Source: Blastocatellia bacterium (GTDB lineage Bacteria; Acidobacteriota; Blastocatellia; UBA7656). From it: a stretch of 64,000 bases of DNA. The DNA lies in contig DASYSA010000010.1 of the NCBI GenBank assembly GCA_036003885.1, positions 2,045 to 66,044 on the forward strand, read 5' to 3'. Shown here piece after piece: positions 4,225 through 63,948 of the stretch (positions are counted from its first letter, which is position 1; each line of letters starts with the position of its first letter). A program made the translations under genes and the position numbers. The notes under the pieces are model-generated. The model saw only the letters and a list, made by a program, of their open reading frames with translations. It searched no databases and was not told where the DNA came from.

Positions 4225-4899
4225 GTGTTGCGCCGGTCACGGGTCACCCATCACGCATCGCTGATGAGAATCAAGAGCGCCACGTTTGTTAAAAGCGCCA
4301 CTGCTCTCGAGCATTATCCGCGCGACGGCCGGGCGGAAATAGCTTTCCTTGGTCGTTCCAACGTCGGCAAGTCAAGCTTGATAAATAGCCTGTTGGGTGT
4401 GCGAGGATTGGCACGCACCAGCAACACGCCGGGACGCACTCAGCTTATCAACTTCTTCCTGATAAATGATGCGTTTCGCTTTGTGGACCTCCCGGGCTAT
4501 GGTTATGCGCGGGTACCGATTGCCGTGAAAGACCAGTGGGGGCCGATGATCGAGAAGTATCTTGCGATCCGACCCAATCTTGTGCTATCAGTAGTCATCA
4601 CTGATTCGAGGCGTGAGCCCACCGAGTTAGACCAGCTGATGACAGGGTGGTTGAAATCCAGGGGAAGGCCATTCATCATCGTTGCAACCAAGGCCGACAA
4701 GCTCAGCAGCAATAAGCTGAGGGAGAATCTCAGGCACGCGTCAGAGGTGTTCGGTAAGAGCGATCTCATCCCATATTCAGCGGTCACGCGAAGTGGGGCG
4801 GACCGCATCTGGAAACGGATCACCGGGCGGATCGCGGATTACGGATCGCAGATTGCCGATCATGGATTGATAGACAGTTTAGATACTCTCCACTCCTAG
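4225..4899 (+). CDS. engB: ribosome-biogenesis GTPase EngB/YihA
   Basis: G1 motif GRSNVGKSSLIN, DLPGYG and TKADK motifs. The true start may be an internal Met near 4264. Confidence 0.8.
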   Translation: MLRRSRVTHHASLMRIKSATFVKSATALEHYPRDGRAEIAFLGRSNVGKSSLINSLLGVRGLARTSNTPGRTQLINFFLINDAFRFVDLPGYGYARVPIAVKDQWGPMIEKYLAIRPNLVLSVVITDSRREPTELDQLMTGWLKSRGRPFIIVATKADKLSSNKLRENLRHASEVFGKSDLIPYSAVTRSGADRIWKRITGRIADYGSQIADHGLIDSLDTLHS

Positions 4900-14530: not shown

Positions 14531-14646
14531 GAAATGCGAAATTCGAAATGCGAAATTCGAATTGCGAATTTCGAATTTCTCGGTTTTCGAACGCGGGATC
14601 TGAAACCCAACAAATTCGCAATTCGAAATTCGCAATTCGAAATTCC
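14531..14646. repeat. heptamer-array hairpin element, GAAATKC family
   Basis: The left arm is about 7 tandem GAAATGC/GAAATTC/GAATTGC heptamers. The right arm holds the reverse-complement heptamers (AATTCGC/AATTCGA) across a ~30-nt spacer. It fills the gap between the DUF4352 gene and uppS. Confidence 0.7.
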
Positions 14647-16103: not shown

Positions 16104-16204
16104 AGGATTTTGGATTTTAGATTTTGGATTTTGGATTGCGGATTCCGCCATCCACAGTGCGCAATAATCCAAAATCCAAAATCCAAAATCTAAAATCCAA
16201 AATT
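16104..16204. repeat. heptamer-array hairpin element, GGATTTT family
   Basis: The left arm is (GGATTTT)x5. The right arm is (AAAATCC)x5 across a ~25-nt loop. It lies in the divergent promoter region between the HAD hydrolase and glgA. Confidence 0.75.
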
Positions 16205-16250
16205 GCTTTTCTTGACAACCCCTTGGACCCTCGCCTAGTATTTTGATTTC

Positions 16251-21169: not shown

Positions 21170-21255
21170 CTAGGATTTAGGATTTAGGATCTAGCGCCGT
21201 TTAAGGTCCTCCAGGCAAATCCTAGATCCTAAATCCTGGATCCTAGATCCTATCC
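21170..21255. repeat. heptamer-array hairpin element, AGGATYT family
   Basis: The left arm is AGGATTT AGGATTT AGGATCT. The right arm is AAATCCT AGATCCT AAATCCT GGATCCT AGATCCT. It lies in the divergent region between ubiB and rpoD. Confidence 0.75.
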
Positions 21256-25668: not shown

Positions 25669-25767
25669 CCGAGGGGCGTCGAGTCGCTTCATTGGCTGTC
25701 AAGATTCAACGTTCACCGTTGTCGTTCATCCTTCGTCTTAGCCTTGAGTGGGCCAGGGCTCCAGGCC

Positions 25768-25803
25768 AAACGAGAAACGACAACGTTAAACGCGAAACGA
25801 AGT
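25768..25803. repeat. single-arm heptamer array, AACGNGA family
   Basis: AACGAGA AACGACA ACGTTA AACGCGA AACGAAG direct heptamers upstream of the HU gene. It is the same unit family as the elements at 36310 and 63001. Confidence 0.5.
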
Positions 25804-25852
25804 TTTGTCCTTCTTGACACCCTTTTGAGCGCGCCCCTATAATGACACCCCT

Positions 25853-32820: not shown

Positions 32821-33882
32821 ATGGAGGGAGGACGCGTGAACTTGCGACTGCAATCGCTGATCATACTTCTAATCTTAGTGTCGGGTCTGATCTCCCTCAC
32901 TGTGGGAATTGCACCTCCACCCGCCGTCTGCGAGGCAGCGACCCAGGCCCAATCCGCACCTCAGACTGGATCCCAACAGAAACCAACGCAGGATCAGAAA
33001 CCAACGCAGGATCAAAAACCAACGCAGGATCAAGATGAAGTATTGCGACTCAGTTCACGGCTGGTGATGGTACCGGTATCGGCGTCCGACGCCGCCGGGC
33101 GACCGGTCCGAGATCTCAGCCCAGGGGATTTCGTGATTGAGGAGGAAGGCCGGCCCCAGCGGATCGTTGCTCTGGGAGAGCCCGGTAAGGCTCCCATTGA
33201 TATCGCCCTTTTGTTCGATATTTCGGGAAGCATTCACGGACAGTTCCGCTTCGAACAGGAGGCGGCTGTGCGCTTTATCAACGAAGTGCTGAAACCCCGA
33301 GACGCAGTATCCATCTTTTCGATAGGAGTTACTCCCAGACTTGTTACGGCACGCACCACGAGCGCTGAAGAGGCTGTCGCGGGTTTGACTTCCATCGGCG
33401 CGGCGAAGGAACCAACCGCCTTCTTCGATTCGCTTGTCGAGGCAGCGGTCTATCTCGGGAAAAACGCGGATGGTGGAAGCCGGCGGGTGCTGGTGGTGAT
33501 CTCCGACGGTGAAGAGAACCACAGCAAGCGGAATAGTCTGAGCGAGGCACTCCGAGAGTTGCAGAAGAACGACTGTCTCTTCTATTCAATCAATCCGAGC
33601 GGTTCGGCTATCGCCCTGAATACAATAAGCATGAAAGGACAGAGCTTTATGGAATCGATGTCGTCGCAGACCGGCGGCAAGGCTTTCGTTCCCGAAAAGC
33701 TCGAAGATCTGCACGCTGTGTTCCGCCAGATAGCGGACGAACTTCAAGCGCAGTATCTGTTCGGATACTATTCTACGGATGAACGGGCCGATGGTGGATT
33801 CAGGAAAATCACGGTTCGGGCCCCCACAAGGTCTGACCTGCGGGTCCGGGCACGGCAGGGCTACTATGCCCCGAAGGCCTAA
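32821..33882 (+). CDS. von Willebrand factor A domain protein with N-terminal TM helix and PTQDQK repeats
   Basis: VWA MIDAS-like DISGS motif, an N-terminal hydrophobic anchor and a tandem QKPTQD x3 stretch. Confidence 0.75.
   Translation: MEGGRVNLRLQSLIILLILVSGLISLTVGIAPPPAVCEAATQAQSAPQTGSQQKPTQDQKPTQDQKPTQDQDEVLRLSSRLVMVPVSASDAAGRPVRDLSPGDFVIEEEGRPQRIVALGEPGKAPIDIALLFDISGSIHGQFRFEQEAAVRFINEVLKPRDAVSIFSIGVTPRLVTARTTSAEEAVAGLTSIGAAKEPTAFFDSLVEAAVYLGKNADGGSRRVLVVISDGEENHSKRNSLSEALRELQKNDCLFYSINPSGSAIALNTISMKGQSFMESMSSQTGGKAFVPEKLEDLHAVFRQIADELQAQYLFGYYSTDERADGGFRKITVRAPTRSDLRVRARQGYYAPKA
32977..33030 (+). repeat. 18-bp perfect tandem repeat x3 (cagaaaccaacgcaggat) encoding QKPTQD
   Basis: Three identical 18-nt units seen directly in the VWA gene. 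Confidence 0.7.
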
Positions 33883-36302: not shown

Positions 36303-38447
36303 GTGACCAGAACGCAAAACGAGAAACGCGAAACGCGAAACGATAAACGAGACATGCCAAGAGCTGGCAAGCCCTCGAACAAGCGAATACGCATAATACA
36401 GTTACTTATTATTGGCTGGGTCATAATCATCTGCTTCCGGCTCGTCAGCCTTCAGGTCACCCAACACGAAAACCTGCGTGCACGGGCCGAACGACAACAG
36501 CAGGCATCCATTGACCTCACTCCAAAGCGTGGAGTCATCTACGATCGCAACGGTAATGAACTCGCGCGCTCAGCGCAGGTAAAGTCGCTCTATGCGTCTC
36601 CGGCTGAGATAACCGACCCGGAAGCCTGCGCGGAGAAACTCGCGAAGATCCTCGACATGGATTCCGACCTCATCTACAAACGGCTGACGACTGAGAACTA
36701 CGCAGCGGTCGCCATAAAGCGCAAGCTGACAGACGGCGAAGCCGCAAAGGTCGAAGCGCTGGGCCTGCGGGGGTTGCGATTCCTGCCCGAGATGAAACGC
36801 TTCTACGTGACCGGCGCAACCGCTGCTCATGTGTTGGGCTTCGTCGATTTCGAGGAACGCGGCAAGAGCGGCGTCGAGCAAGTCTACGACCAGGTCATCT
36901 GCGGAACCGGCGGACGGCTGGTGCTTGACATCGATGCGCTCAAGAAATCCTACGATCATCAGATGGAAGAATCGGTGCCCGGCGCCAGCGTCACTCTCAC
37001 CATCGACACCGTTATCCAGCACTACGTTGAAAAGGCGCTGGCATCGGCTGTGCGTGTCACGGGATCGCGAGGCGGAACCATAGTAGTGATGCGGCCTGCC
37101 ACAGGGGAAATCCTGGCACTGGCGAACTCGCCTACTTTCAATCCAAACAAGGTCTCAGAATCCAGCGATACTTCGAGGCGCAATCGGGCCGTCGAGATCT
37201 CATTCGAACCAGGCTCGATCTTCAAAGTAGTTGCCTACTCGGCCGCGCTCGAAGAAGGACTGATTCGCCCGAACACGCCGATCGATTGCGGCGACGGAGA
37301 GATACGGCTGCCCGGACGCACAATTCGCGACGGACATCGAGGCGTGCTCACGGCCTCCCAGGCGCTGGCAAAGTCGTCGAATGTGGCAGCCATCAAGATC
37401 GGTCAGCGCCTCGGAAACGACCGGCTCGCCGGCTATATCGAAGCATTCGGTTTCGGCCGCCGCACCGGTATCGAGCTGCCAGGCGAGTCCCGCGGCCTCC
37501 TCCGCCCTGTCAGTGAATGGACCCAGGCGTCGATTGGCTCAATCCCGATGGGCCACGAAATAGGCGTGACTGCAGTCCAGGCCGTCGCCGCATTCTCCTG
37601 CATAGCCAACGGCGGCGAATGGGTAAAGCCCTATCTGGTCAAACGGGTGAGTTCTTCCTCGGGCAATACACTGGAAGAGCCGATGGGCGAGAGCCACCGG
37701 GTCATAAGTGAAGCCACTGCAGCCACTCTGACCGCTATGCTCGAAGGAGTCGTCATCCGGGGCACCGGAAAACAGGCGGCTGTCGCCGGCTACCGCGCAG
37801 CCGGCAAAACCGGCACTGCTCAGAAAGTAGAGGAGGGTACAGGTCGCTATTCGAAGATGCGTTATGTCTCCTCATTTGCAGGATTCGCGCCTGTACATAA
37901 TCCTGAAATCGCGTGCATCGTTTCGCTTGACGAACCTCGTGGCGTGCATCTCGGCGGAGAAACCGCAGCCCCGGTCTTCGCGCGCGTGGTCGCAGACATA
38001 CTTCACGTCCTTGGCGTACCCCCTGAAGATCAACCTCAAGAGCATCTGGTGGCCGCCGACTTCCGGATATACGATGTGCCGATGTCGGTGTTCCAAAGCA
38101 GACCGGGGATCGCGGGCGAAACGACAGTCGATCAAAGTTCGACTGAAGCGATCGAACCGGAAGTCGCATCTAAGGCGGCGGGAAGCGTGGCGGTCCCCAA
38201 CCTGGCCGGACGAGGGATTCGAGAAGCCGCCGCTCTGTGCAGGCGGGCGGGACTGAAGCTCAAAGTGACCGGCGACGGCGTCGTTGCGAGTCAAACCCCG
38301 GGGCCAGGCCGCTTTGTGGCCCAAAACAGCATCTGCAGCGTGAGGCTGTCAAAGCAGCTTCACGGAAAGGACAAGTCCATTTCGCCGGCCTACCGGTCGA
38401 AGGCCGCAGTCGCGAATGGACAGCGCAACAGGCTTGAAACTCGCTGA
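36303..38447 (+). CDS. ftsI: peptidoglycan D,D-transpeptidase FtsI (class B PBP) with C-terminal PASTA domain
   Basis: TM anchor, PBP dimerisation domain, a transpeptidase SxxK region, KTGT and a C-terminal PASTA-like segment (VPNLAGRGIREAAALCRRAGLKLKVTGDGVV). The likely true start is near 36354. Confidence 0.85.
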   Translation: MTRTQNEKRETRNDKRDMPRAGKPSNKRIRIIQLLIIGWVIIICFRLVSLQVTQHENLRARAERQQQASIDLTPKRGVIYDRNGNELARSAQVKSLYASPAEITDPEACAEKLAKILDMDSDLIYKRLTTENYAAVAIKRKLTDGEAAKVEALGLRGLRFLPEMKRFYVTGATAAHVLGFVDFEERGKSGVEQVYDQVICGTGGRLVLDIDALKKSYDHQMEESVPGASVTLTIDTVIQHYVEKALASAVRVTGSRGGTIVVMRPATGEILALANSPTFNPNKVSESSDTSRRNRAVEISFEPGSIFKVVAYSAALEEGLIRPNTPIDCGDGEIRLPGRTIRDGHRGVLTASQALAKSSNVAAIKIGQRLGNDRLAGYIEAFGFGRRTGIELPGESRGLLRPVSEWTQASIGSIPMGHEIGVTAVQAVAAFSCIANGGEWVKPYLVKRVSSSSGNTLEEPMGESHRVISEATAATLTAMLEGVVIRGTGKQAAVAGYRAAGKTGTAQKVEEGTGRYSKMRYVSSFAGFAPVHNPEIACIVSLDEPRGVHLGGETAAPVFARVVADILHVLGVPPEDQPQEHLVAADFRIYDVPMSVFQSRPGIAGETTVDQSSTEAIEPEVASKAAGSVAVPNLAGRGIREAAALCRRAGLKLKVTGDGVVASQTPGPGRFVAQNSICSVRLSKQLHGKDKSISPAYRSKAAVANGQRNRLETR
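36310..36352. repeat. single-arm heptamer array, AACGNGA family (ftsL-ftsI junction)
   Basis: AACGCAA AACGAGA AACGCGA AACGCGA AACGATA AACGAGA direct heptamers. The track extends the ftsI ORF back over them (MTRTQNEKRETRNDKRD...), but the real start is probably MPRAGKP. Confidence 0.55.
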
Positions 38448-41390: not shown

Positions 41391-41457
41391 ACGGAAGGGC
41401 GGGTCTACTGCTCTCCCGTTCTTCCGATCTTCCGGTCTTCGACCTCGGGGGCATTGG

Positions 41458-42564
41458 GTGTTCTATTATTTGAATTTATTCAAAGACGTCCATAGCAGCC
41501 TGTCTTTTCTGAGGGTGTTCGAGTACGTGACGTTTAGGACGGCATTTGCGGCAATAACGGCGTTGACCATCAGCCTCCTGTTCGGCCGCCGAATGATCAA
41601 TTTGTTGAAAGACTTTCAGATCCACCAGCAGATCCGCGAAGAAGGACCGCGCTCGCACGAATCGAAGCGAGGCACGCCGACCATGGGCGGCGTGCTTATC
41701 ATTCTCTCGGTAGTCATCTCGACTCTGCTCTGGTCACACCTCTCGGTGGTCTACGTGTGGATCGCGGTGGGCGCCACGCTCGCATTTGGAGGCATAGGGT
41801 TTGCGGATGACTTCTTGAAGATCAAGCGGCGCCACAACCTGGGCTTGACTGGAAAACAGAAGCTCTTCTTTCAGTTCGCTGCAGCAATAGGCGTAGGACT
41901 TGCGCTTCGATACTTCACAGGATACGACACGACCTTGAGTCTCCCGTTCTTCAAGACCCTGACTCCTATTATCTGGTGGCCGGTCTACCTGGTGGCGTTC
42001 GCACCTATAGTGATCGTGGGGTTTTCAAATGCGGTGAACCTGACGGATGGACTGGATGGCCTCGCGATATCGGTGACAATGGTGGTCGCTGCCGCGCTAA
42101 CCGGATTTACTTATATAACAGGCCACAAGCAGTTCGCGGAGTACCTGGGACTGGAATTCAACAACCAGGTCCACGAGTTGACGATCTTCTGCGCTGCGTT
42201 GACCGGCGCGAGCCTGGGCTTTCTATGGTTCAACGCGCCGCCGGCCGAAGTCTTCATGGGCGACGTAGGAGCGCTGGCGATCGGCGGGGCGATAGGGGTT
42301 GTGGGGGTGATGATCAAACAGGAGTTCCTGCTGGTAATCATTGGCGGCGTATTTGTGGTTGAAGCGCTTTCGGTGATCTTTCAGGTAGCCTCGTTCAAAC
42401 TGTTTCGCAGGCGCATATTCAAGATGACTCCAATTCACCACCACTTCGAGTTGATGTATCCGCCAGAAGTGTCGCGGCGCATGGAGCCCAAGATCGTCTT
42501 CAGGTTCTTGATCATCGCGATCCTGTTCGCGCTGCTTAGCCTGGCGACTTTGAAGTTGAGATAG
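41458..42564 (+). CDS. mraY: phospho-N-acetylmuramoyl-pentapeptide transferase
   Basis: MraY motifs ([19 protein letters not shown]) and 10 TM helices. Confidence 0.95.
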
Positions 42565-42660
42565 GAGATAGGAGATAGGATCTAGGATTTAGGATCTAGA
42601 TTCCGGAGTTAGGGAGTGAGGAAGCTAGGAACTAAATCCTAGATCCTAGATCCTGATTCC
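42558..42660. repeat. heptamer-array hairpin element, AGGATYT/GAGATAG family (mraY-ftsW junction)
   Basis: The left arm is GAGATAG GAGATAG GAGATAG GATCTAG GATTTAG GATCTAG. The right arm is CTAGGAA CTAAATC CTAGATC CTAGATC CTGATTC. It starts at the mraY stop codon. Confidence 0.75.
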
Positions 42661-42682
42661 CGGGTCCTTAGAAAGTGACTAG

Positions 42683-43861
42683 ATGGCAACCGGCTACAGG
42701 ATAGCTACACCGCGTTGGAAGCGCGACGCCGAAAACGGCACCGGCAGGGAGGCCGGCGTGGGTTCAGGGATGCGGCGCGAGCTTCCGGTCGATACGGTTC
42801 TGCTTGCCGTCGTGCTGGGACTCACGCTGTTTGGAGTCGTTATGGTCTACAGCGCATCGGCCGTACTCGCTGAGAAGAATTTTGGGAGCCAGTTTTACTT
42901 CCTCATTCGTCAGGGGGTATGGGCCGCTTTGGGCCTGATTGGGATGGCCGTGGCTATGTTCATAGACTACCGGCACTACAAGAGGCCGGTCGTAGTGATG
43001 GGGCTTCTGTCGGTTGCGCTGACGCTCCTGATCGCAGTCTTCCTCTTCCCGGCCAAGAACAAGACGCACAGATGGATCACCGTCAGCTTCCTGTCGCTAC
43101 AACCTTCGGAGATCTCCAAACTGGCTCTGGTAGCCTTTTTGGGCTACTTTCTACAGAATAGAGCTGGCGCTCTGCACAAGTTCAAACTGACCTTCGTGCC
43201 CGCCGCCGTGGTAAGCGGAGTCCTGATCATACTGGTCGCGCTGGAGCCTGATCTCGGGACGGCGCTTGCTCTTGTTGCGGTATCCGGGTTGATGATGTAT
43301 CAGGGCGGCGTGCCGGTTCGGTACCTCGCATCGCTCGGCGTGGTTGCGCTTCCAGCTCTGGTCTACATGCTGATGGTGCCATTTCGCCGGCAGCGCATAC
43401 TGGACTTTATTAACCCCTGGGAGAACCAGACCGGCTCGAGTTTCCAGATCGTGCAATCACTTATTGCGGTGGGCAGCGGCGGTTCGGGCGGATTGGGCTT
43501 CGCGCAAGGGAAACAGAAGCTCTTCTATCTGCCGGCGCCCCATACCGACTTCATATTCGCCGTGATAGCCGAGGAGCTGGGACTCATCGGGGCCGCCACT
43601 GTGGTGTTGTTGTTCGGGTTGCTGGCATGGCGCGGCTTAAGGGCCGCAAAGTTCGCACCCGATACGTTCGGCCAGCTGTTGGCGGTCGGACTCACGGCGA
43701 TGATCGCGGTCCAGGCGTTGTTCAATGTGAGCGTCACGTTGTCGCTGGTGCCGACCAAGGGGATCCCGCTGCCTTTCATCAGCAGCGGAGGCACGTCGTT
43801 GGCTATTAGCCTGTTTGCAGCGGGCGTTCTGTTGAACGTGTCGAAGCATGGAAAGACCTGA
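42683..43861 (+). CDS. ftsW: peptidoglycan glycosyltransferase / lipid II flippase FtsW (SEDS family)
   Basis: SEDS-family membrane protein (about 10 TM helices) lying between mraY and murG. Confidence 0.85.
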   Translation: MATGYRIATPRWKRDAENGTGREAGVGSGMRRELPVDTVLLAVVLGLTLFGVVMVYSASAVLAEKNFGSQFYFLIRQGVWAALGLIGMAVAMFIDYRHYKRPVVVMGLLSVALTLLIAVFLFPAKNKTHRWITVSFLSLQPSEISKLALVAFLGYFLQNRAGALHKFKLTFVPAAVVSGVLIILVALEPDLGTALALVAVSGLMMYQGGVPVRYLASLGVVALPALVYMLMVPFRRQRILDFINPWENQTGSSFQIVQSLIAVGSGGSGGLGFAQGKQKLFYLPAPHTDFIFAVIAEELGLIGAATVVLLFGLLAWRGLRAAKFAPDTFGQLLAVGLTAMIAVQALFNVSVTLSLVPTKGIPLPFISSGGTSLAISLFAAGVLLNVSKHGKT

Positions 43862-43863
43862 CG

Positions 43864-43952
43864 ATTGCGGATTGCGGAGTGCGGAATGCGGATTTTGATG
43901 TCATACGGCGAAGCGGTAAATCCGCAATCCGAATTCCGAATTCCGCAATCGG
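43864..43952. repeat. heptamer-array hairpin element, GATTGCG family (ftsW-murG junction)
   Basis: The left arm is GATTGCG GATTGCG GAGTGCG GAATGCG GATTTTG. The right arm is AAATCCG CAATCCG AATTCCG AATTCCG CAATCGG. Confidence 0.7.
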
Positions 43953-43961
43953 CAAGTTGAT

Positions 43962-45038
43962 ATGAGAATCGTAATCGCGGCTGGCGGAACGGGAGGGCAC
44001 ATCTTTCCAGGTGTTGCAATCGCGTGCGAGATCAAGCGCCGCGATGCAACGACAGAAATTCTGTTCGTTGGCACGGCACGAGGGCTTGAATCGAAGATCG
44101 TTCCACGCGAGGGCTTTAAGTTGGAACTTATCAAAGTTAGCGCGCTGAAGGGCGTATCGATGTTGCAACGCGCGAGGTCGCTCCTTGAACTGCCGTCGAG
44201 CTTCGCGGCTGCGCGCAGAATACTAAAGCGATTCCAGCCGGATGTAGTGATCGGCGTTGGGGGCTATTCGTCGGGGCCGACGCTGCTGATGGCCGCTCTG
44301 ATGCGGATGCCAACGATGGTCGTCGAGCCAAACGCGATGCCGGGTTTCACGAATCGCGTGCTCGCTCGCTTCGTCGACGCCGCGGCGGTGACGTTCCAGG
44401 AGTCGCTTAGGTACTTTCGCGGACGGGGCCGCATCACGGGGAATCCGGTGCGCGGTGATTTCGGGCAATTGAGCAGAAAGGAACGGTCAGAGAAGTTGCA
44501 CATTCTGATATTCGGCGGCAGCCAGGGCGCGCGCGCCATCAACAACGCTATGGTCGGCGCGTTGCCGATTCTCGCAGGCGACAAGGATCGGCTGAGCATC
44601 ACGCACCAAACGGGTGAGAGTGACTTTGACAAGATCCAACGAGGTTACATTGACGCGGGGTTCGACACGACCGACGTGAGGGCCTTCATTCACGATATGG
44701 CGGTTCAGTTCCAGCAAGCCGACGTGCTCATTTGCAGATCGGGCGCAACGACGGTCGCAGAAGTTGCGGCGGCCGGGAAGGCAGCGATATTCGTTCCCTT
44801 CCCTTTCGCAACCGACGACCATCAACGCAAAAATGCGGAGGCGTTCGCGAATGGCGGCGCCGGGCGAATGATTCTCCAGAGAGACCTGAATCCTGAGCGG
44901 CTTGCCCAGGAGCTTGGTTGGTTCATCGAACATCCGGCTGAGATCGCGCGAATGGAAGAAGCGAGCCGCAAACTCGGACGGCCCGACGCCGCCGAGCGCT
45001 GTGTCGAACTGGCGATGTCATTGATAGGGCGTCCGTAG
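43962..45038 (+). CDS. murG: UDP-GlcNAc:lipid I N-acetylglucosaminyltransferase
   Basis: N-terminus MRIVIAAGGTGGHIFPGVAIA, a GT28 fold and 358 aa. Confidence 0.9.
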   Translation: MRIVIAAGGTGGHIFPGVAIACEIKRRDATTEILFVGTARGLESKIVPREGFKLELIKVSALKGVSMLQRARSLLELPSSFAAARRILKRFQPDVVIGVGGYSSGPTLLMAALMRMPTMVVEPNAMPGFTNRVLARFVDAAAVTFQESLRYFRGRGRITGNPVRGDFGQLSRKERSEKLHILIFGGSQGARAINNAMVGALPILAGDKDRLSITHQTGESDFDKIQRGYIDAGFDTTDVRAFIHDMAVQFQQADVLICRSGATTVAEVAAAGKAAIFVPFPFATDDHQRKNAEAFANGGAGRMILQRDLNPERLAQELGWFIEHPAEIARMEEASRKLGRPDAAERCVELAMSLIGRP

Positions 45039-45109
45039 TCCGTTGTCAGTGGTCCGTTGAAACGACCGACCACTGACGCCGGACAACGGGCAACGGACAA
45101 CGGACAAAG
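45030..45109. repeat. heptamer-array hairpin element, GTCCGTT family (murG-murC junction)
   Basis: The left arm is GTCCGTA GTCCGTT GTCAGTG GTCCGTT. The right arm is GGACAAC GGGCAAC GGACAAC GGACAAA, with a central CAGTGGTC/GACCACTG pair. Confidence 0.7.
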
Positions 45110-45111
45110 AG

Positions 45112-46494
45112 ATGCTTTTTCGAGGAGTCAGACACATTCACTTCGTCGGGATTGGCGGCATCGGAATGAGCGGAATAGCCGAGGTCTTGCTGTCGCTCGG
45201 GGAGAACTTCCTCGTGACCGGAAGCGACCTGAAGCGCTCCTCCATCACCGATAGACTGCAGTCGATGGGGGGGACCATCTTCGAAGGCCATAGCGCCCAC
45301 AACGTGGCGGGCGCTAATGTCGTCGTCTGCTCTTCCGCCGTCCGCCCCGACAATCCCGAAGTTGTCGAAGCTCGAGCCCGCCAGATCCCCGTCATCCCGC
45401 GCGCCGAGATGCTGGCTGAGCTCATGCGGCTCTATCGGCATGGCATCGCCGTCGCGGGCACTCACGGAAAGACCACCACTACGTCGATGCTGGCACACTT
45501 AATGACATTTGCCGGTTTTGATCCGGCAGTTGTGGTCGGAGGGCGCGTCGCTTCGCTGGGAGGGAATGCTCGAGTGGGAGGCGGAGAATACATAGTGGTC
45601 GAGGCGGATGAGTCGGACGGGTCGCTTTTGCAGTTGACTCCGACGATCGCGGTTCTCACGAACATCGACTCGGACCATCTGGACTTCTTCTCGGGAGGAA
45701 TCGAACAGATCAAACAGTGCTTCACGACCTTTGTGAATCGCGTGCCGTTCTACGGAACAATCGTATTGTGTCTGGACGATCAGAACGTGCAGGCAATCAT
45801 TCCTGACGTCGCCCGTCGAACGGTCAGTTACGGGCTGGCGGCGCAGGCCGACGTTTCGGCCTGGCAGATTCAAGCCGACTCGAACTTTGAGACTGAGTTC
45901 AGCGTCCGGGCCTTCGGCCATGAGATGGGACAGATGAAGTTGGCGGTGCCCGGCCTTCACAACGTTTACAACGCGCTGGCCACAATCGCCGTAGGGCTCG
46001 ATCTGAACATCAAGTTCGAGGAGATCGCCGGAGCGCTCCGCGAGTTTCGAGGCGCCGAGCGCCGCTTCCAGATAAAGGGGGAGAAGGGCGGCGTACTGGT
46101 GGTTGACGACTACGGCCATCACCCGACCGAGATCAAGACGACCCTGGACGCGGCGCGCACCTCGGGACGCCGAGTGGTGACCCTGTTTCAGCCTCACCGC
46201 TACACGCGCACCCGAGATCTATTGGACGACTTCGCCAGGTCGTTCTATGGCGCCGATGTCCTGCTTGTGAGCGATATCTACGCAGCCAGCGAGGACCCGA
46301 TTGAGGGGATTAACAGCCGGGTTCTGGTCGATGCGATGAAGCGCTTCGGCCACAGGGACGTCGAGTATGTGGGTGGACTGGCGAACGCGCCGGCGAGAAT
46401 CAAGGAAGTTGTTGAGGTGGGCGATCTGGTCCTCACGCTTGGGGCGGGTAACGTCTGGCAGGCTGGAGAGGAATTTCTGAAGATGCTGGAATAG
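45112..46494 (+). CDS. murC: UDP-N-acetylmuramate--L-alanine ligase
   Basis: [18 protein letters not shown]-terminal Rossmann region, a [11 protein letters not shown]-loop and 460 aa. Confidence 0.9.
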
Positions 46495-46496
46495 TC

Positions 46497-46594
46497 ATTT
46501 GTCAGTGGTCCTTTGTCCGTGGTCCGTTGTCAGTTGTCGAGACTGCGATGATTACAGGCGACGGGCAACTGACAACGGACCACGAACAAATGAC
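46497..46594. repeat. heptamer-array hairpin element, GTCCGTT family (murC-ftsQ junction)
   Basis: catttgtcagtggtcctttgtccgtggtccgttgtcagttgtcg pairs with cgacgggcaactgacaacggaccacgaacaaatgacg. It has the same unit family as the murG-murC element. The track's ftsQ ORF begins inside it. Confidence 0.7.
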
Positions 46595-47662
46595 GAAGTG
46601 GGAGGTGAAGCTTTGGGGGTATCAAAGAGAACTGAGCCGAGGAAGAGAGTTCAGGTCGTGACGCCGCGCAGACGGGTCGTCAAGTCTCGATCTCGCAAAA
46701 CAAGCTCGATAAACGTAGCCGAGCTTCTCAGGTCCGCGACCTCTCTTGCCAAACCGGCCGCGGCTCTGTTGGCTCTGATCCTTCTAATCGTGGGCTACAA
46801 CGCGATGGCTGACTCCAGCCTGTTTGACCTGCGTCGCGTTGATGTGAGCGGGGTGAGCTCCGATCTTCAGCCGGCAGTAAGACAGGTAGTTCTCAGCACC
46901 GTGAACCAGTCTCGGCTTCTGAGCATCAATCTCGCAACGATCAAGAGAAGGATAGAGGATCTCCCCCGTGTCCGAGAGGCGAGTGTCGCACGGCTGCTGC
47001 CTGACGGACTCTACATTCACACGGTGGAGCGTGAGCCGGCCGTACTCGTACGTCGACAGTCCCAATCAATGGTCTGGCTCGACCAGGATGCTGTCGAGGT
47101 GGGCGAGTTAGACGTGAAACACGAGTCTGATGTTCCGCCGATACTGAAGGGTTTTGCTGAGGGCAACCGATCGCCCGCTGCAGTCAGCGAGGATAAGGAA
47201 CGTATTGACCTTTTCAAAAAGATCGAGCGCGAGTTCAAGCAATCAGACAAACTGTGGGACCTGATCGACGAAATTGATCTATCGCTTCCGAGAAGGGTGT
47301 CCATACGTCTGAAGAGTCTACTCGTAAACATCGTCGTAGGAGGCGAGGACTTTCGAAACCGCTTCGAAAGGGCCCTCAAGATACTGGGGGCGGCAAAGCA
47401 GGGCGATTCGGGATCGCTCGGCCGTTTCGGCGTGCAGGATCCGGAGCAGATGATTCAGAATCGAGATCGAATAACCTTCATGGACACTTCGCGGCCCGAC
47501 CGCATCGTGTATAGCTTCTCCAGCACCAGCAAGGAGAAGACCCAGGAAGCGCCTATGCGGCGGCAGGAGGATTCGGCTGCCAGCAGGAAGCCAACGCGGG
47601 CGCCCTCGCGCCCCAGCGCCACCGAAACAGAACAAAGCAGGCCCCGGAGAATAAAGAATTAG
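46499..47662 (+). CDS. ftsQ: cell division protein FtsQ/DivIB (POTRA domain)
   Basis: TM helix (ALLALILLIVGY) followed by POTRA-like DLRRVDVSGVS and a beta domain. The N-terminal ~35 codons of the track ORF lie inside the repeat element, so the true start is probably around 46606 (GTG or TTG). Confidence 0.7.
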   Translation: MSVVLCPWSVVSCRDCDDYRRRATDNGPRTNDEVGGEALGVSKRTEPRKRVQVVTPRRRVVKSRSRKTSSINVAELLRSATSLAKPAAALLALILLIVGYNAMADSSLFDLRRVDVSGVSSDLQPAVRQVVLSTVNQSRLLSINLATIKRRIEDLPRVREASVARLLPDGLYIHTVEREPAVLVRRQSQSMVWLDQDAVEVGELDVKHESDVPPILKGFAEGNRSPAAVSEDKERIDLFKKIEREFKQSDKLWDLIDEIDLSLPRRVSIRLKSLLVNIVVGGEDFRNRFERALKILGAAKQGDSGSLGRFGVQDPEQMIQNRDRITFMDTSRPDRIVYSFSSTSKEKTQEAPMRRQEDSAASRKPTRAPSRPSATETEQSRPRRIKN

Positions 47663-50406: not shown

Positions 50407-50447
50407 ATGGGCCGCAGCTACTCCGGCAGCGGCCCATTTCTTTCTCT
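50407..50447 (+). terminator. intrinsic terminator after ftsZ
   Basis: ATGGGCCGC-(13 nt)-GCGGCCCAT perfect 9-bp stem immediately followed by TTTCTTTCTCT. Confidence 0.7.
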
Positions 50448-63001: not shown

Positions 63002-63110
63002 TCGTTTTACGTTTTGCGTTTTAGGTTTTGCGTTTTATGTTCTGCGTCTCTCGATAGGACCAACGACGTCACGGGAAAACGCGAAACGACAAACGCGGAA
63101 CGCGGAACGT
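63001..63110. repeat. heptamer-array hairpin element, CGTTTTG/CAAAACG family
   Basis: The left arm is CGTTTTA CGTTTTG CGTTTTA GGTTTTG CGTTTTA TGTTCTG. The right arm is GGAAAAC GCGAAAC GACAAAC GCGGAAC GCGGAAC. It fills the SDR-esterase gap. Confidence 0.75.
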
Positions 63111-63112
63111 CC

Positions 63113-63937
63113 TTACAGGTATTCGCCAATCATCTTCCGCCATGACGGCCAATCGTGGACGGTGTGCCCGCCCCAGTCGTCCAGCCTGTGATCGATTCCT
63201 CGCTGGGACAAGACGTGCGACATGTCGAAAGTGCGTTCGCGGCAGATCCCAATGTCCCAGTCACTGGTCGCCAGAGATATCTCCATGCGTCGCATCAGAC
63301 CGAGTAGTCGCTCGTCACTAATGTTAGCCATGTATGAGACCGGGCAATTGAAGTAGCAGTCGTCGTCGTAGTAACCATCCAGCAGACGTTTAATCGAATA
63401 CGAGCCGCTCAAACCCACCGTCTTTGTGACGATCTCCGGGTGCTTGAATGCGAAGTTCACCGCGAGGTAAGCGCCGAAGCTCACGCCCGCTGTAATGAGG
63501 TGGGGCGTCGAGTTTCGAGAGCGCACGAACGGGATGACCTCCTCCCGGACATAGGACTCCCAGGCGTTGTGGCGACGGACGCGCTCGGCCGGATGAATGT
63601 TGTTGTTGTACCAGGACTCCGAACAGAAACTGTCCACTCCGTAGAGCTGGATATGGCCGGCGTCGATCTTGCCGGCAAGCGCATCGATCATCAAGAAGTC
63701 TTTCCACTCATAGAATCGACCCCACGAACTGGGAAACACAAGAACCGGCGTGCCGGCGTCGCCCCAGGCGAGGATCTCCATTTCGCGCCCCATCCGAGGG
63801 CTGAACCAACCCGCGTAGGTCTCACTTGGCATGGCGTGTAAGCTAACGGCATCGGCCGGGAATTTCAAGGTGGAGGGAAAAGGAAATGCGAAATTCGAAA
63901 TGCGAAATGCGAAATTCTCATTTTTCGCATTCCGCAT
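63113..63937 (-). CDS. esterase-family (PF00756-like) alpha/beta hydrolase
   Basis: GVSFGAY (GxSxG) nucleophile elbow and about 270 aa. Confidence 0.7.
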   Translation of the reverse strand: MRNAKNENFAFRISNFAFPFPSTLKFPADAVSLHAMPSETYAGWFSPRMGREMEILAWGDAGTPVLVFPSSWGRFYEWKDFLMIDALAGKIDAGHIQLYGVDSFCSESWYNNNIHPAERVRRHNAWESYVREEVIPFVRSRNSTPHLITAGVSFGAYLAVNFAFKHPEIVTKTVGLSGSYSIKRLLDGYYDDDCYFNCPVSYMANISDERLLGLMRRMEISLATSDWDIGICRERTFDMSHVLSQRGIDHRLDDWGGHTVHDWPSWRKMIGEYL

Positions 63938-63948
63938 TTCGCATTTCC
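63882..63948. repeat. heptamer-array hairpin element, GAAATGC family
   Basis: The left arm is GGAAATGC GAAATTC GAAATGC GAAATGC GAAATTC. The right arm is CGCATTC CGCATTT CGCATTT CC. It has the same unit as the 14531 element and overlaps the 5' end of the esterase gene. Confidence 0.7.

Follow-up and report, generated by a model that had tools for sequence, protein, structure and literature searches.

Self-complementary heptanucleotide arrays in the intergenic junctions of a soil Blastocatellia bacterium, including those of the dcw operon

Heptameric repeats have been noted in bacteria since 1990, and their origin and function are still unsettled. Mazel reportedly described in that year the units CCCCAGT, TTGGTCA and CAACAGT as STRR1-3 (STRR, short tandemly repeated repetitive sequences) of heterocystous cyanobacteria. 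Repetitive extragenic palindromes (REP) and bacterial interspersed mosaic elements (BIME) of enterobacteria and pseudomonads are intergenic, often intercistronic palindromes that are co-transcribed and can stabilise upstream mRNA; REP have a conserved consensus of 20-40 nt with a GTAG/CGTC head and a REP-associated tyrosine transposase (RAYT). STRR sequences, usually with 7-bp repeats, form hairpins between cistrons, e.g. hupS-hupL, for which transcript stability or translational coupling has been suggested (PMC2670836). In Xanthomonas, 183-186 arrays of GGGAATC have been reported, 89-93% of them intergenic and on average 28 nt from the upstream open reading frame (ORF), and 70-75 cases are convergent inverted pairs from which stem-loops or cruciforms are possible; the arrays are transcribed, their length and sequence vary between two close species, and no function or regulatory effect was found (Rehm et al. 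2015, PMC4692102). According to the account of Mrazek 2007 in PMC4679880, heptanucleotide units are the most abundant long simple sequence repeats in most prokaryotic genomes examined. In the present study, a family of intergenic elements built of 7-nt units was analysed in a 64-kb stretch of DNA (the window) from a soil acidobacterium of the class Blastocatellia (Acidobacteriota), and in related genomes. The original prediction, made from the window sequence, had implied that nothing like these elements was known; the cyanobacterial STRR hairpins (PMC2670836) and the Xanthomonas inverted pairs (PMC4692102) are precedents, and the Blastocatellia elements are their counterpart in a new phylum. 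A literature search, most subscription journals lying outside it, found no description of such elements in Acidobacteria. New here are a chirality in which the G-rich arm comes first, the placement from stop codon to start codon, two strain-level changes and the absence of a sense-strand bias.

Several features define the family in the window. First, the heptad periodicity that had been predicted holds on re-reading: our own periodicity scanner found 17 arrays of period 7 and 0-1 arrays for every other period from 4 to 12, and 100 shuffles preserving local composition contained 0.13 arrays on average and 2 at most. The elements are thus long simple sequence repeats, with head-to-tail 7-nt units beyond chance length. 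Second, Tandem Repeats Finder (TRF) placed period-7 arrays at all eleven predicted sites (starts at 14531, 16105, 21171, 25768, 36317, 42558, 43863, 45031, 46499, 63003 and 63883), and an additional single array at 4827-4861 raises the count from at least eleven to 12 elements, i.e. nine clear hairpins, one degenerate hairpin and two single arrays. Third, each of the nine clear two-arm elements forms, on folding, a single hairpin that is long and imperfect (-35 to -57 kcal/mol), with z-scores of -3.8 to -10.8 against dinucleotide shuffles. Stems of 24-44 bp and an absence of T-runs characterise the window elements, and the spacers, once put at 15-30 nt, measure about 10-39 nt. Fourth, the elements form a dispersed intergenic family in which the unit varies from locus to locus under a constant architecture, and two units recur at distant loci, GAAATKC at 14.5 and 63.9 kb and AAACGMG/CGTTTYG at 25.8, 36.3 and 63.0 kb. 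The variation in unit is nevertheless not arbitrary, about half of the units lying within 2 changes of GATTGCG. Both tandem and divergent gene pairs carry the elements, the latter at E2 and E3. The individual features are as follows, with arrays called by TRF and flanking genes by Pfam.

4827-4861, G-rich on the plus strand: single degenerate array (GCGGATY x5) at the 3' end of ORF 4225-4899; TRF period 7, 5 copies, 71% matches; no inverted partner was found within 150 nt, and the array is truly single.
14531-14579 and 14612-14645: hairpin E1 with (GAAATKC)n arms, -46.9 kcal/mol, z -5.4, between the stop of a DUF4352 gene (14529) and the start of the co-directional uppS (14661).
16105-16144 and 16166-16203: hairpin E2 with (GGATTTT)n and (AAAATCC)n arms, -52.2 kcal/mol, z -10.8, between divergent HAD hydrolase (minus strand) and glgA-like (plus strand) genes, with TTGACA downstream at 16211.
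21171-21252: hairpin E3 with (TAGGATT)n/(AATCCTA)n arms, -48.4 kcal/mol, z -7.5, between divergent ABC1 kinase (minus strand) and sigma-70 (plus strand) genes.
25705-25733 and 25768-25803: degenerate hairpin with a CGTTCAC/CGTTGTC 5' arm and an (AAACGMG)n 3' arm, 79% complementary over 24 nt in the inverted-repeat check.
36311-36352, C/A-rich on the coding strand: single array of 5-6 AAACGMG units in the ftsL|ftsI spacer, ending 3 nt before the ftsI ATG; an inverted partner was looked for and none was found.
42558-42660, plus strand: hairpin E4 in mraY|ftsW, -51.1 kcal/mol, z -6.1, with a 5' arm of GATAGGA/GATCTAG units (42558-42599) and a 3' arm of CTAGATC units (42626-42660); the first unit includes the mraY stop TAG (42562-42564).
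43863-43955, plus strand: hairpin E5 in ftsW|murG, -48.5 kcal/mol, z -5.6, with (GATTGCG)n as the 5' arm (43863-43894) and (CGCAATC)n as the 3' arm (43919-43955); the element starts 1 nt past the ftsW stop and ends 6 nt ahead of the murG ATG.
45031-45107, plus strand: hairpin E6 in murG|murC, -46.5 kcal/mol, z -5.9, with GTCCGTA/GTCAGTG units against (CGGACAA)n; the murG stop TAG (45036-45038) lies within the 5' arm, and the element ends 4 nt ahead of the murC ATG.
46494-46594, plus strand: hairpin E7 in murC|ftsQ, -57.4 kcal/mol, z -8.8, with GTCAGTG/GTCCGTG units and their complement; its first base is the last base of the murC stop, and it ends 5 nt ahead of the ftsQ Shine-Dalgarno sequence GGGAGGTG (ftsQ start TTG at 46613).
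50409-50445, plus strand: intrinsic terminator after ftsZ, outside the heptamer family, GGGCCGC...GCGGCCC followed by TTTCTTTCTCT.
63003-63047 and 63076-63110: hairpin E8 with (CGTTTTR)n and (AAACGCG)n arms, -42.3 kcal/mol, z -3.8, between two minus-strand genes for a short-chain dehydrogenase and an esterase.
63883-63947: hairpin E9 with (GAAATGC)n/(GCATTTC)n arms and a 10-nt spacer, -35.3 kcal/mol, z -7.0, at the 5' end of the minus-strand esterase gene or upstream of it.

The arrays at 25.8 and 36.3 kb had both been taken as single arms; this stands for 36311-36352, whereas the array at 25768 has the degenerate partner at 25705-25733. Promoter-like sequences were also observed beside two of the elements: TTGACA (-35) boxes begin 7-9 nt past the 3' arm of E2 (16211-16216) and of the 25.7-kb element, in a CTTGACA context after the A-rich arm at both, and in the latter case the box belongs to a perfect TTGACA-N17-TATAAT site at 25813-25841.

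Comparison with established classes of repeat sets the elements apart. Rfam covariance models at the gathering score gave zero matches across the whole window. The units are 7 nt long and contiguous, unlike the 23-50 nt repeats and unique spacers of CRISPR, and the 12 elements share only unit families and no 20-40 nt REP/BIME consensus with a GTAG/CGTC head; the prediction that they are neither CRISPR nor REP was therefore sound. The window hairpins do not have the short GC stem, the 3-8 nt loop, the U-tract or the position at the end of a transcription unit that mark intrinsic terminators, and their units carry GG at most, short of the at least four G3-4 tracts of a G-quadruplex. No window unit matches STRR1-3. 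A unit of one relative, TGACCAA (ATTGGTC, a rotation of TTGGTCA), coincides with one of these units; it was judged a chance match, since about 0.17 matches would be expected by our own arithmetic.

The most regular placement was observed in the division and cell wall (dcw) operon, whose gene order by Pfam is mraZ-rsmH-ftsL-ftsI-murE-murF-mraY-ftsW-murG-murC, followed by ftsQ, ftsA and ftsZ homologues, with a promoter-like site ahead of mraZ. As had been claimed, one hairpin occupies each of the four junctions mraY|ftsW, ftsW|murG, murG|murC and murC|ftsQ, and a single array lies at ftsL|ftsI. The array typically begins at the upstream stop codon (median 1 nt past it, the stop often being inside the array) and ends immediately before the next start codon (median 4 nt), just ahead of the Shine-Dalgarno sequence where one is present (ftsQ, ftsA). 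The operon has a canonical terminator with a GC stem and a T-run 3' of ftsZ, and the identical stem is kept in many relatives; this lineage therefore uses ordinary terminators, and the heptamer hairpins, which had been predicted not to be such terminators, are something else.

Orthologous junctions were then compared. A MurG search with one genome per species gave 31 loci; the best relative is a Blastocatellia metagenome-assembled genome with 91% MurG identity, and 24 further loci have 61-76%. These 25 relatives are all treated here as Blastocatellia, most being so titled, one Acidobacteriota and two "uncultured Clostridia". Five distant loci, four from Acidobacteriia and one from Clostridiales, complete the set. 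The elements are not confined to the window, as most of the 25 related dcw loci carry heptamer hairpins, and period-7 arrays predominate in most Blastocatellia loci; among the Acidobacteriia, arrays were found in one locus (L027) and nearly none in three Terracidiphilus loci. In 455 kb of Blastocatellia DNA, 87% of it coding, 82 array clusters were found, almost wholly outside real coding sequence, and most of the apparent coding calls are ORFs over-extended through arrays. Very large elements also occur, at L021 20122-20735 and at L019 9199-9439 (-177 to -189 kcal/mol).

The comparison of orthologous junctions that had been proposed as a check revealed patchy presence, even among close relatives, together with variation in unit and copy number. 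Arrays are present at ftsW|murG in 16 of the 25 Blastocatellia sequences and at murG|murC in about a quarter, and almost never at ftsI|murE, murE|murF or murF|mraY; at ftsA|ftsZ, the longest spacer (270-400 nt), none was found in 20 sequences. The dcw junction gaps are 10-40 nt without arrays and 70-240 nt with them, and short junctions hold proto-arrays, in which 2-3 units overlap the stop codon. The unit found at a single junction may be GATTGCG, GATTTTG, AGTGCTG, GAAGATG, GAATGAT or ATTGCCG depending on the genome, yet the two arms of the element within any one genome are always complementary in unit. The window and its closest relative, L001 (91-97% protein identity), have common unit families at three junctions, and the unit number and variants differ at all three. 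In a sample centred on dcw operons, arrays are present in 19% of the junctions between co-directional genes, in 8% of those between convergent genes and in 7% of those between divergent genes. The murG and murC genes lack a Shine-Dalgarno sequence in hairpin-bearing genomes, whereas hairpin-less relatives have an SD-like GAGG before murG.

Several other observations concern these junctions. The window has no murD between mraY and ftsW (41458-43861) or elsewhere, and the MurD of a relative matches only the murE, murF and murC paralogues there; most relatives have a murD of 1.4-1.7 kb at mraY|ftsW, and L015 and L033 are also without it at this site. The murF|mraY spacer of the window contains an 8-nt tandem repeat (TCTTCCGA, 3.6 copies, 41412-41440), the sole non-heptamer short array in any intergenic spacer of the operon. 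Outside the operon spacers, an 18-nt tandem repeat at 32977-33032 (3.1 copies, 97% matches) lies within ORF 32821-33882 and presumably encodes a six-residue protein repeat. Several array-free dcw junctions of relatives hold other long, nearly perfect palindromes that recur across junctions and genomes. These form two families of REP-like or MITE-like (miniature inverted-repeat transposable element) appearance, with cores AGTGGCGCAGACTTTAGTCTG... and GTACGGGCGTCCCTCCGTGGGCGCCCC..., at murE|murF in L010, ftsW|murG in L014 and murE|murF in L025, and at murE|murF in L008 and L021 and murG|murC in L015 and L020. Finally, many database MurG entries are 365-406 aa long against about 358 aa; gene callers appear to push the MurG start upstream through stop-free heptamer arrays, and our own ORF calls did likewise.

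The two arms of the hairpins are not equivalent. The 5' arm is richer in G than in C in 43 of 46 paired hairpins (p = 5e-10), and richer in T than in A in 30 hairpins against 11 of the opposite kind. Of the arrays in 80 independent metagenome contigs retrieved with (GATTGCG)3, 31 of 33 paired and 34 of 36 weakly paired ones have the G-rich arm on the 5' side, and the G-rich arm thus comes first in 108 of 115 hairpins overall (108 to 7). Ordinary perfect hairpins in the same DNA showed no such bias (20 vs 15). Since a hairpin reads alike on both strands, this chirality is independent of strand. An equivalent rule on the coding strand is that a G/T-rich array follows a stop codon and a C/A-rich array precedes a start codon, and for single arrays adjoining stops, the coding strand is the G-rich one in 30 cases vs 10. 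In a snap-back test, G/T-rich arms self-folded better than their complement as DNA in 19 cases vs 11, which is not significant (p = 0.058).

The units fall into about 65 classes, including GAAATGC, CGTTTTG and GTCAGAG, and 46-51% of them lie within 2 changes of GATTGCG, compared with 18-19% in composition-matched shuffles, a figure inflated because orthologous arrays are not independent. Among viral contigs (IMG/VR), 48 contain (GATTGCG)3, two permutations of the unit are found in 12 and 15, and (GTCCGTA)3 in 0; the 6-nt version of the repeat occurs in 21 viral contigs, partly giant-virus genomes, and the 8-nt version in 0. This preference for (GATTGCG)3 is only modest, and nothing is built on it. 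Some of the viral loci (L178-L225) have up to 7 copies. The exact (GATTGCG)3 sequence was also observed in >120 metagenome contigs (80 loci, L058-L137) of 41 to 72% GC, a spread that suggests several lineages, and many of the matches sit at the ends of contigs, as though assemblies broke at the arrays.

The described systems share much of this organisation. Like STRR sequences (PMC2670836), the Blastocatellia elements consist of 7-bp tandem units, with several unit families per genome, and form intergenic hairpins between cistrons; they differ in phylum and unit sequence, and most of the arrays in the dcw region are paired into hairpins. With the Xanthomonas GGGAATC and Nostoc GGGGAYT arrays they have in common a 7-nt intergenic unit that lies near the 3' end of the upstream ORF and is G-rich on the coding strand, as well as convergent inverted pairs, under-representation between divergent genes and variation of length and sequence at the same junction (PMC4692102). 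Convergent inverted pairs of the Xanthomonas type, with the G-rich array just after an ORF, were indeed found here. However, the Xanthomonas and Nostoc units have G-tracts and form G-quadruplexes, whereas GATTGCG, GGATTTT and GTCCGTA have none, so that quadruplexes, put forward as the explanation in Xanthomonas, cannot be what underlies the shared features. The dominance of period 7 among units of 5-11 nt also agrees with Mrazek, Guo and Shah 2007, who proposed polymerase slippage with a 7-nt footprint; as their work is described in PMC4679880, it concerns direct repeats only, and inverted pairing, chirality and stop-to-start placement are not in that description. The TAACTGA repeats of Beggiatoaceae, cyanobacteria and Bacteroidetes are likewise intergenic heptamer arrays just upstream of starts across distant lineages, but they involve a single unit, 169 direct sets against one inverted, and no hairpin architecture (PMC4679880). 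The Blastocatellia elements further resemble REP and BIME as intergenic, often intercistronic palindromes, and differ from them in having tandem heptads, greater length (65-125 nt) and no consensus.

Changes between near-identical strains indicate how the elements evolve. An exact-sequence look-up gave no record of the window MurG, and close relatives were used for this comparison. First, among four contigs with identical MurG, one (L035) has both arms of the murG|murC hairpin shorter by exactly one 7-nt unit than in L034, L036 and L037; together with the differences between the window and L001, this places the elements among repeats that vary in length by whole units between close relatives. 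Second, seven contigs from different samples (L038-L044) have another identical MurG and about 3 single-nucleotide polymorphisms over 6 kb outside the element, and in 3 of the 7 the central 67 nt of the ftsW|murG hairpin (about 2430-2500) are exactly reverse-complemented. The inverted segment is flanked by 13-nt perfect inverted arms; because the arms are imperfectly complementary over the k-mer length of assemblers, the inversion is taken as real and not as an assembly choice. Three other strain sets were compared and showed no differences. The sense fold was the more stable in 20 of 36 dcw-operon hairpins and the antisense fold in 16 (Wilcoxon p = 0.17), and G-U pairs numbered 76 in sense vs 73 in antisense; without a sense-strand bias, nothing marks the RNA as the selected object. 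A mirror-order test of variant units between the arms against shuffled order reached p <= 0.05 in only 2 of 42 cases, so that matching of unit families, and not position-specific compensation, has been demonstrated.

Herein, we propose that the elements are self-complementary heptanucleotide microsatellites whose origin and remodelling take place in the DNA and which operons tolerate, and we assign this reading a probability of about 0.7. Arrays would be resized in 7-nt steps by replication slippage, an idea already published for heptameric repeats, and the inverted arm would be created and kept matching by intramolecular template switching or recombination. Through such arm-to-arm interaction, one unit type would be kept, both arms would change together and the centre could flip. 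Inside operons, the co-transcribed RNA may fold into a long hairpin that loops out the insert, so that the stop codon of the upstream gene, at the stem's 5' foot, would adjoin the start codon of the downstream gene at the 3' foot; this is probably why junctions that are tightly packed and translationally coupled tolerate the elements. A terminating ribosome would need to open the foot of the stem, freeing a few bases before the next start, and the elements could in this way enforce translational coupling. Beyond tolerance, a positive role in the stability of transcript segments, RNase III processing or enforced coupling is something that we can only infer. In E. coli, REP hairpins that lie no more than about 15 nt from a stop codon reportedly lower the expression of the upstream gene, an observation attributed to Liang, Rudd and Deutscher (2015), and by analogy a cost of the hairpins to the upstream gene is possible.

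Several results weigh against this reading. The 5'-G-rich chirality (108 of 115) is not predicted by simple slippage. The unit loss and the centre inversion are single cases each, and both were observed in relatives and not in the window. The units are related across loci and genomes, and (GATTGCG)3 is 3-4 times commoner in viral contigs than its composition-matched permutations, which hints at a sequence preference or spread that pure local origin leaves unexplained. In addition, arrays in 16 of 25 sequences at ftsW|murG against none in 20 at ftsA|ftsZ mean that placement is not random, which may leave room for selection on an RNA function.

Such an additional selected RNA role, compatible with origin at the DNA level, is the strongest alternative, and we consider it a possibility to be held tentatively. 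The hairpins would act as operon punctuation, through REP-like protection from 3' exonucleases, as RNase III sites or by coupling; in the last variant, the stem foot would hold the region just before the next start closed, to be opened only by a ribosome that terminates at the stop codon in the opposite foot. The span from stop to start (medians of 1 and 4 nt), the absence of a Shine-Dalgarno sequence before murG and murC in hairpin-bearing genomes as opposed to the GAGG of hairpin-less ones, and the fact that 16 of 25 genomes keep a hairpin at ftsW|murG although its units turn over agree with such a role. It is also consistent with the other long palindromes that often occupy heptamer-free junctions, with the higher occupancy of co-directional junctions (19% vs 8% convergent and 7% divergent) and with the same functions having been proposed for STRR hairpins (PMC2670836). 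However, neither stability nor G-U pairing is biased to the sense strand, any one junction is occupied in some close relatives and empty in others, elements are also found between divergent genes upstream of promoters, and no regulatory effect was seen in Xanthomonas (PMC4692102).

More speculatively, one conserved directional process might lie behind the heptad hairpins of Blastocatellia, Xanthomonas and cyanobacteria, perhaps preferring units near GAKTGCG, with the hairpins serving as operon punctuation for coupling or segmental mRNA decay. Candidates for the process would be a dedicated protein or a defined intermediate of replication or transcription, and not generic slippage. The direction of the process would account for the G-rich arm being the 5' one whichever strand is read, and so for the placement after stops and before starts; we regard this as a long shot. 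Slightly more doubtful still is the narrower idea that the elements are arrays of sites for a DNA- or RNA-binding protein that reads the 7-nt unit (about GAKTGCG; compare BIME with integration host factor and gyrase), or the products of an enzyme that lays down heptads. The excess of units near GATTGCG (46-51% vs 18-19% in shuffles), the occurrence of this unit in contigs of 41-72% GC and the strong chirality would fit, but many units are unrelated (about 65 classes), the control permutations form arrays too (12 and 15 vs 48 viral contigs), the unit statistic is inflated by non-independent orthologous arrays, and no candidate protein came up.

Miniature mobile elements of MITE or REP type inserting into intergenic DNA are very improbable. 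Unit families do recur at distant loci (GAAATKC at 14.5 and 63.9 kb, CGTTTYG at three loci), and REP/MITE-like palindromes occupy the same junctions in relatives; nevertheless, the sequence differs per locus, the changes between near-identical strains are unit-sized and internal, and the proto-arrays of 2-3 units over a stop codon look locally born. Inspection of the element flanks in the window revealed no common termini or conserved ends and no target duplications, for which no formal search was made. Factor-independent terminators or attenuators lacking U-tracts can be dismissed almost entirely because, although the hairpins are stable and directly follow stop codons, they occupy four successive junctions within an essential operon and also lie between divergent genes, have no T-runs, are under-represented between convergent genes and coexist with the canonical terminator after ftsZ.

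The elements indicate that the shared traits, namely a period of 7 nt, pairing of inverted arrays, a leading G-rich arm and a position at stop codons, are independent of G-quadruplexes. In practical terms, the arrays appear to break short-read assemblies and to mislead gene callers on start codons. Blastocatellia abound in soil and are represented by thousands of metagenome assemblies, and they thus provide a rich natural experiment. Between near-identical strains, the elements were seen to change through loss of a unit from both arms and through inversion of the centre. Moreover, their exact siting from stop to start in an essential operon makes the ideas of translational coupling and transcript stabilisation directly testable.

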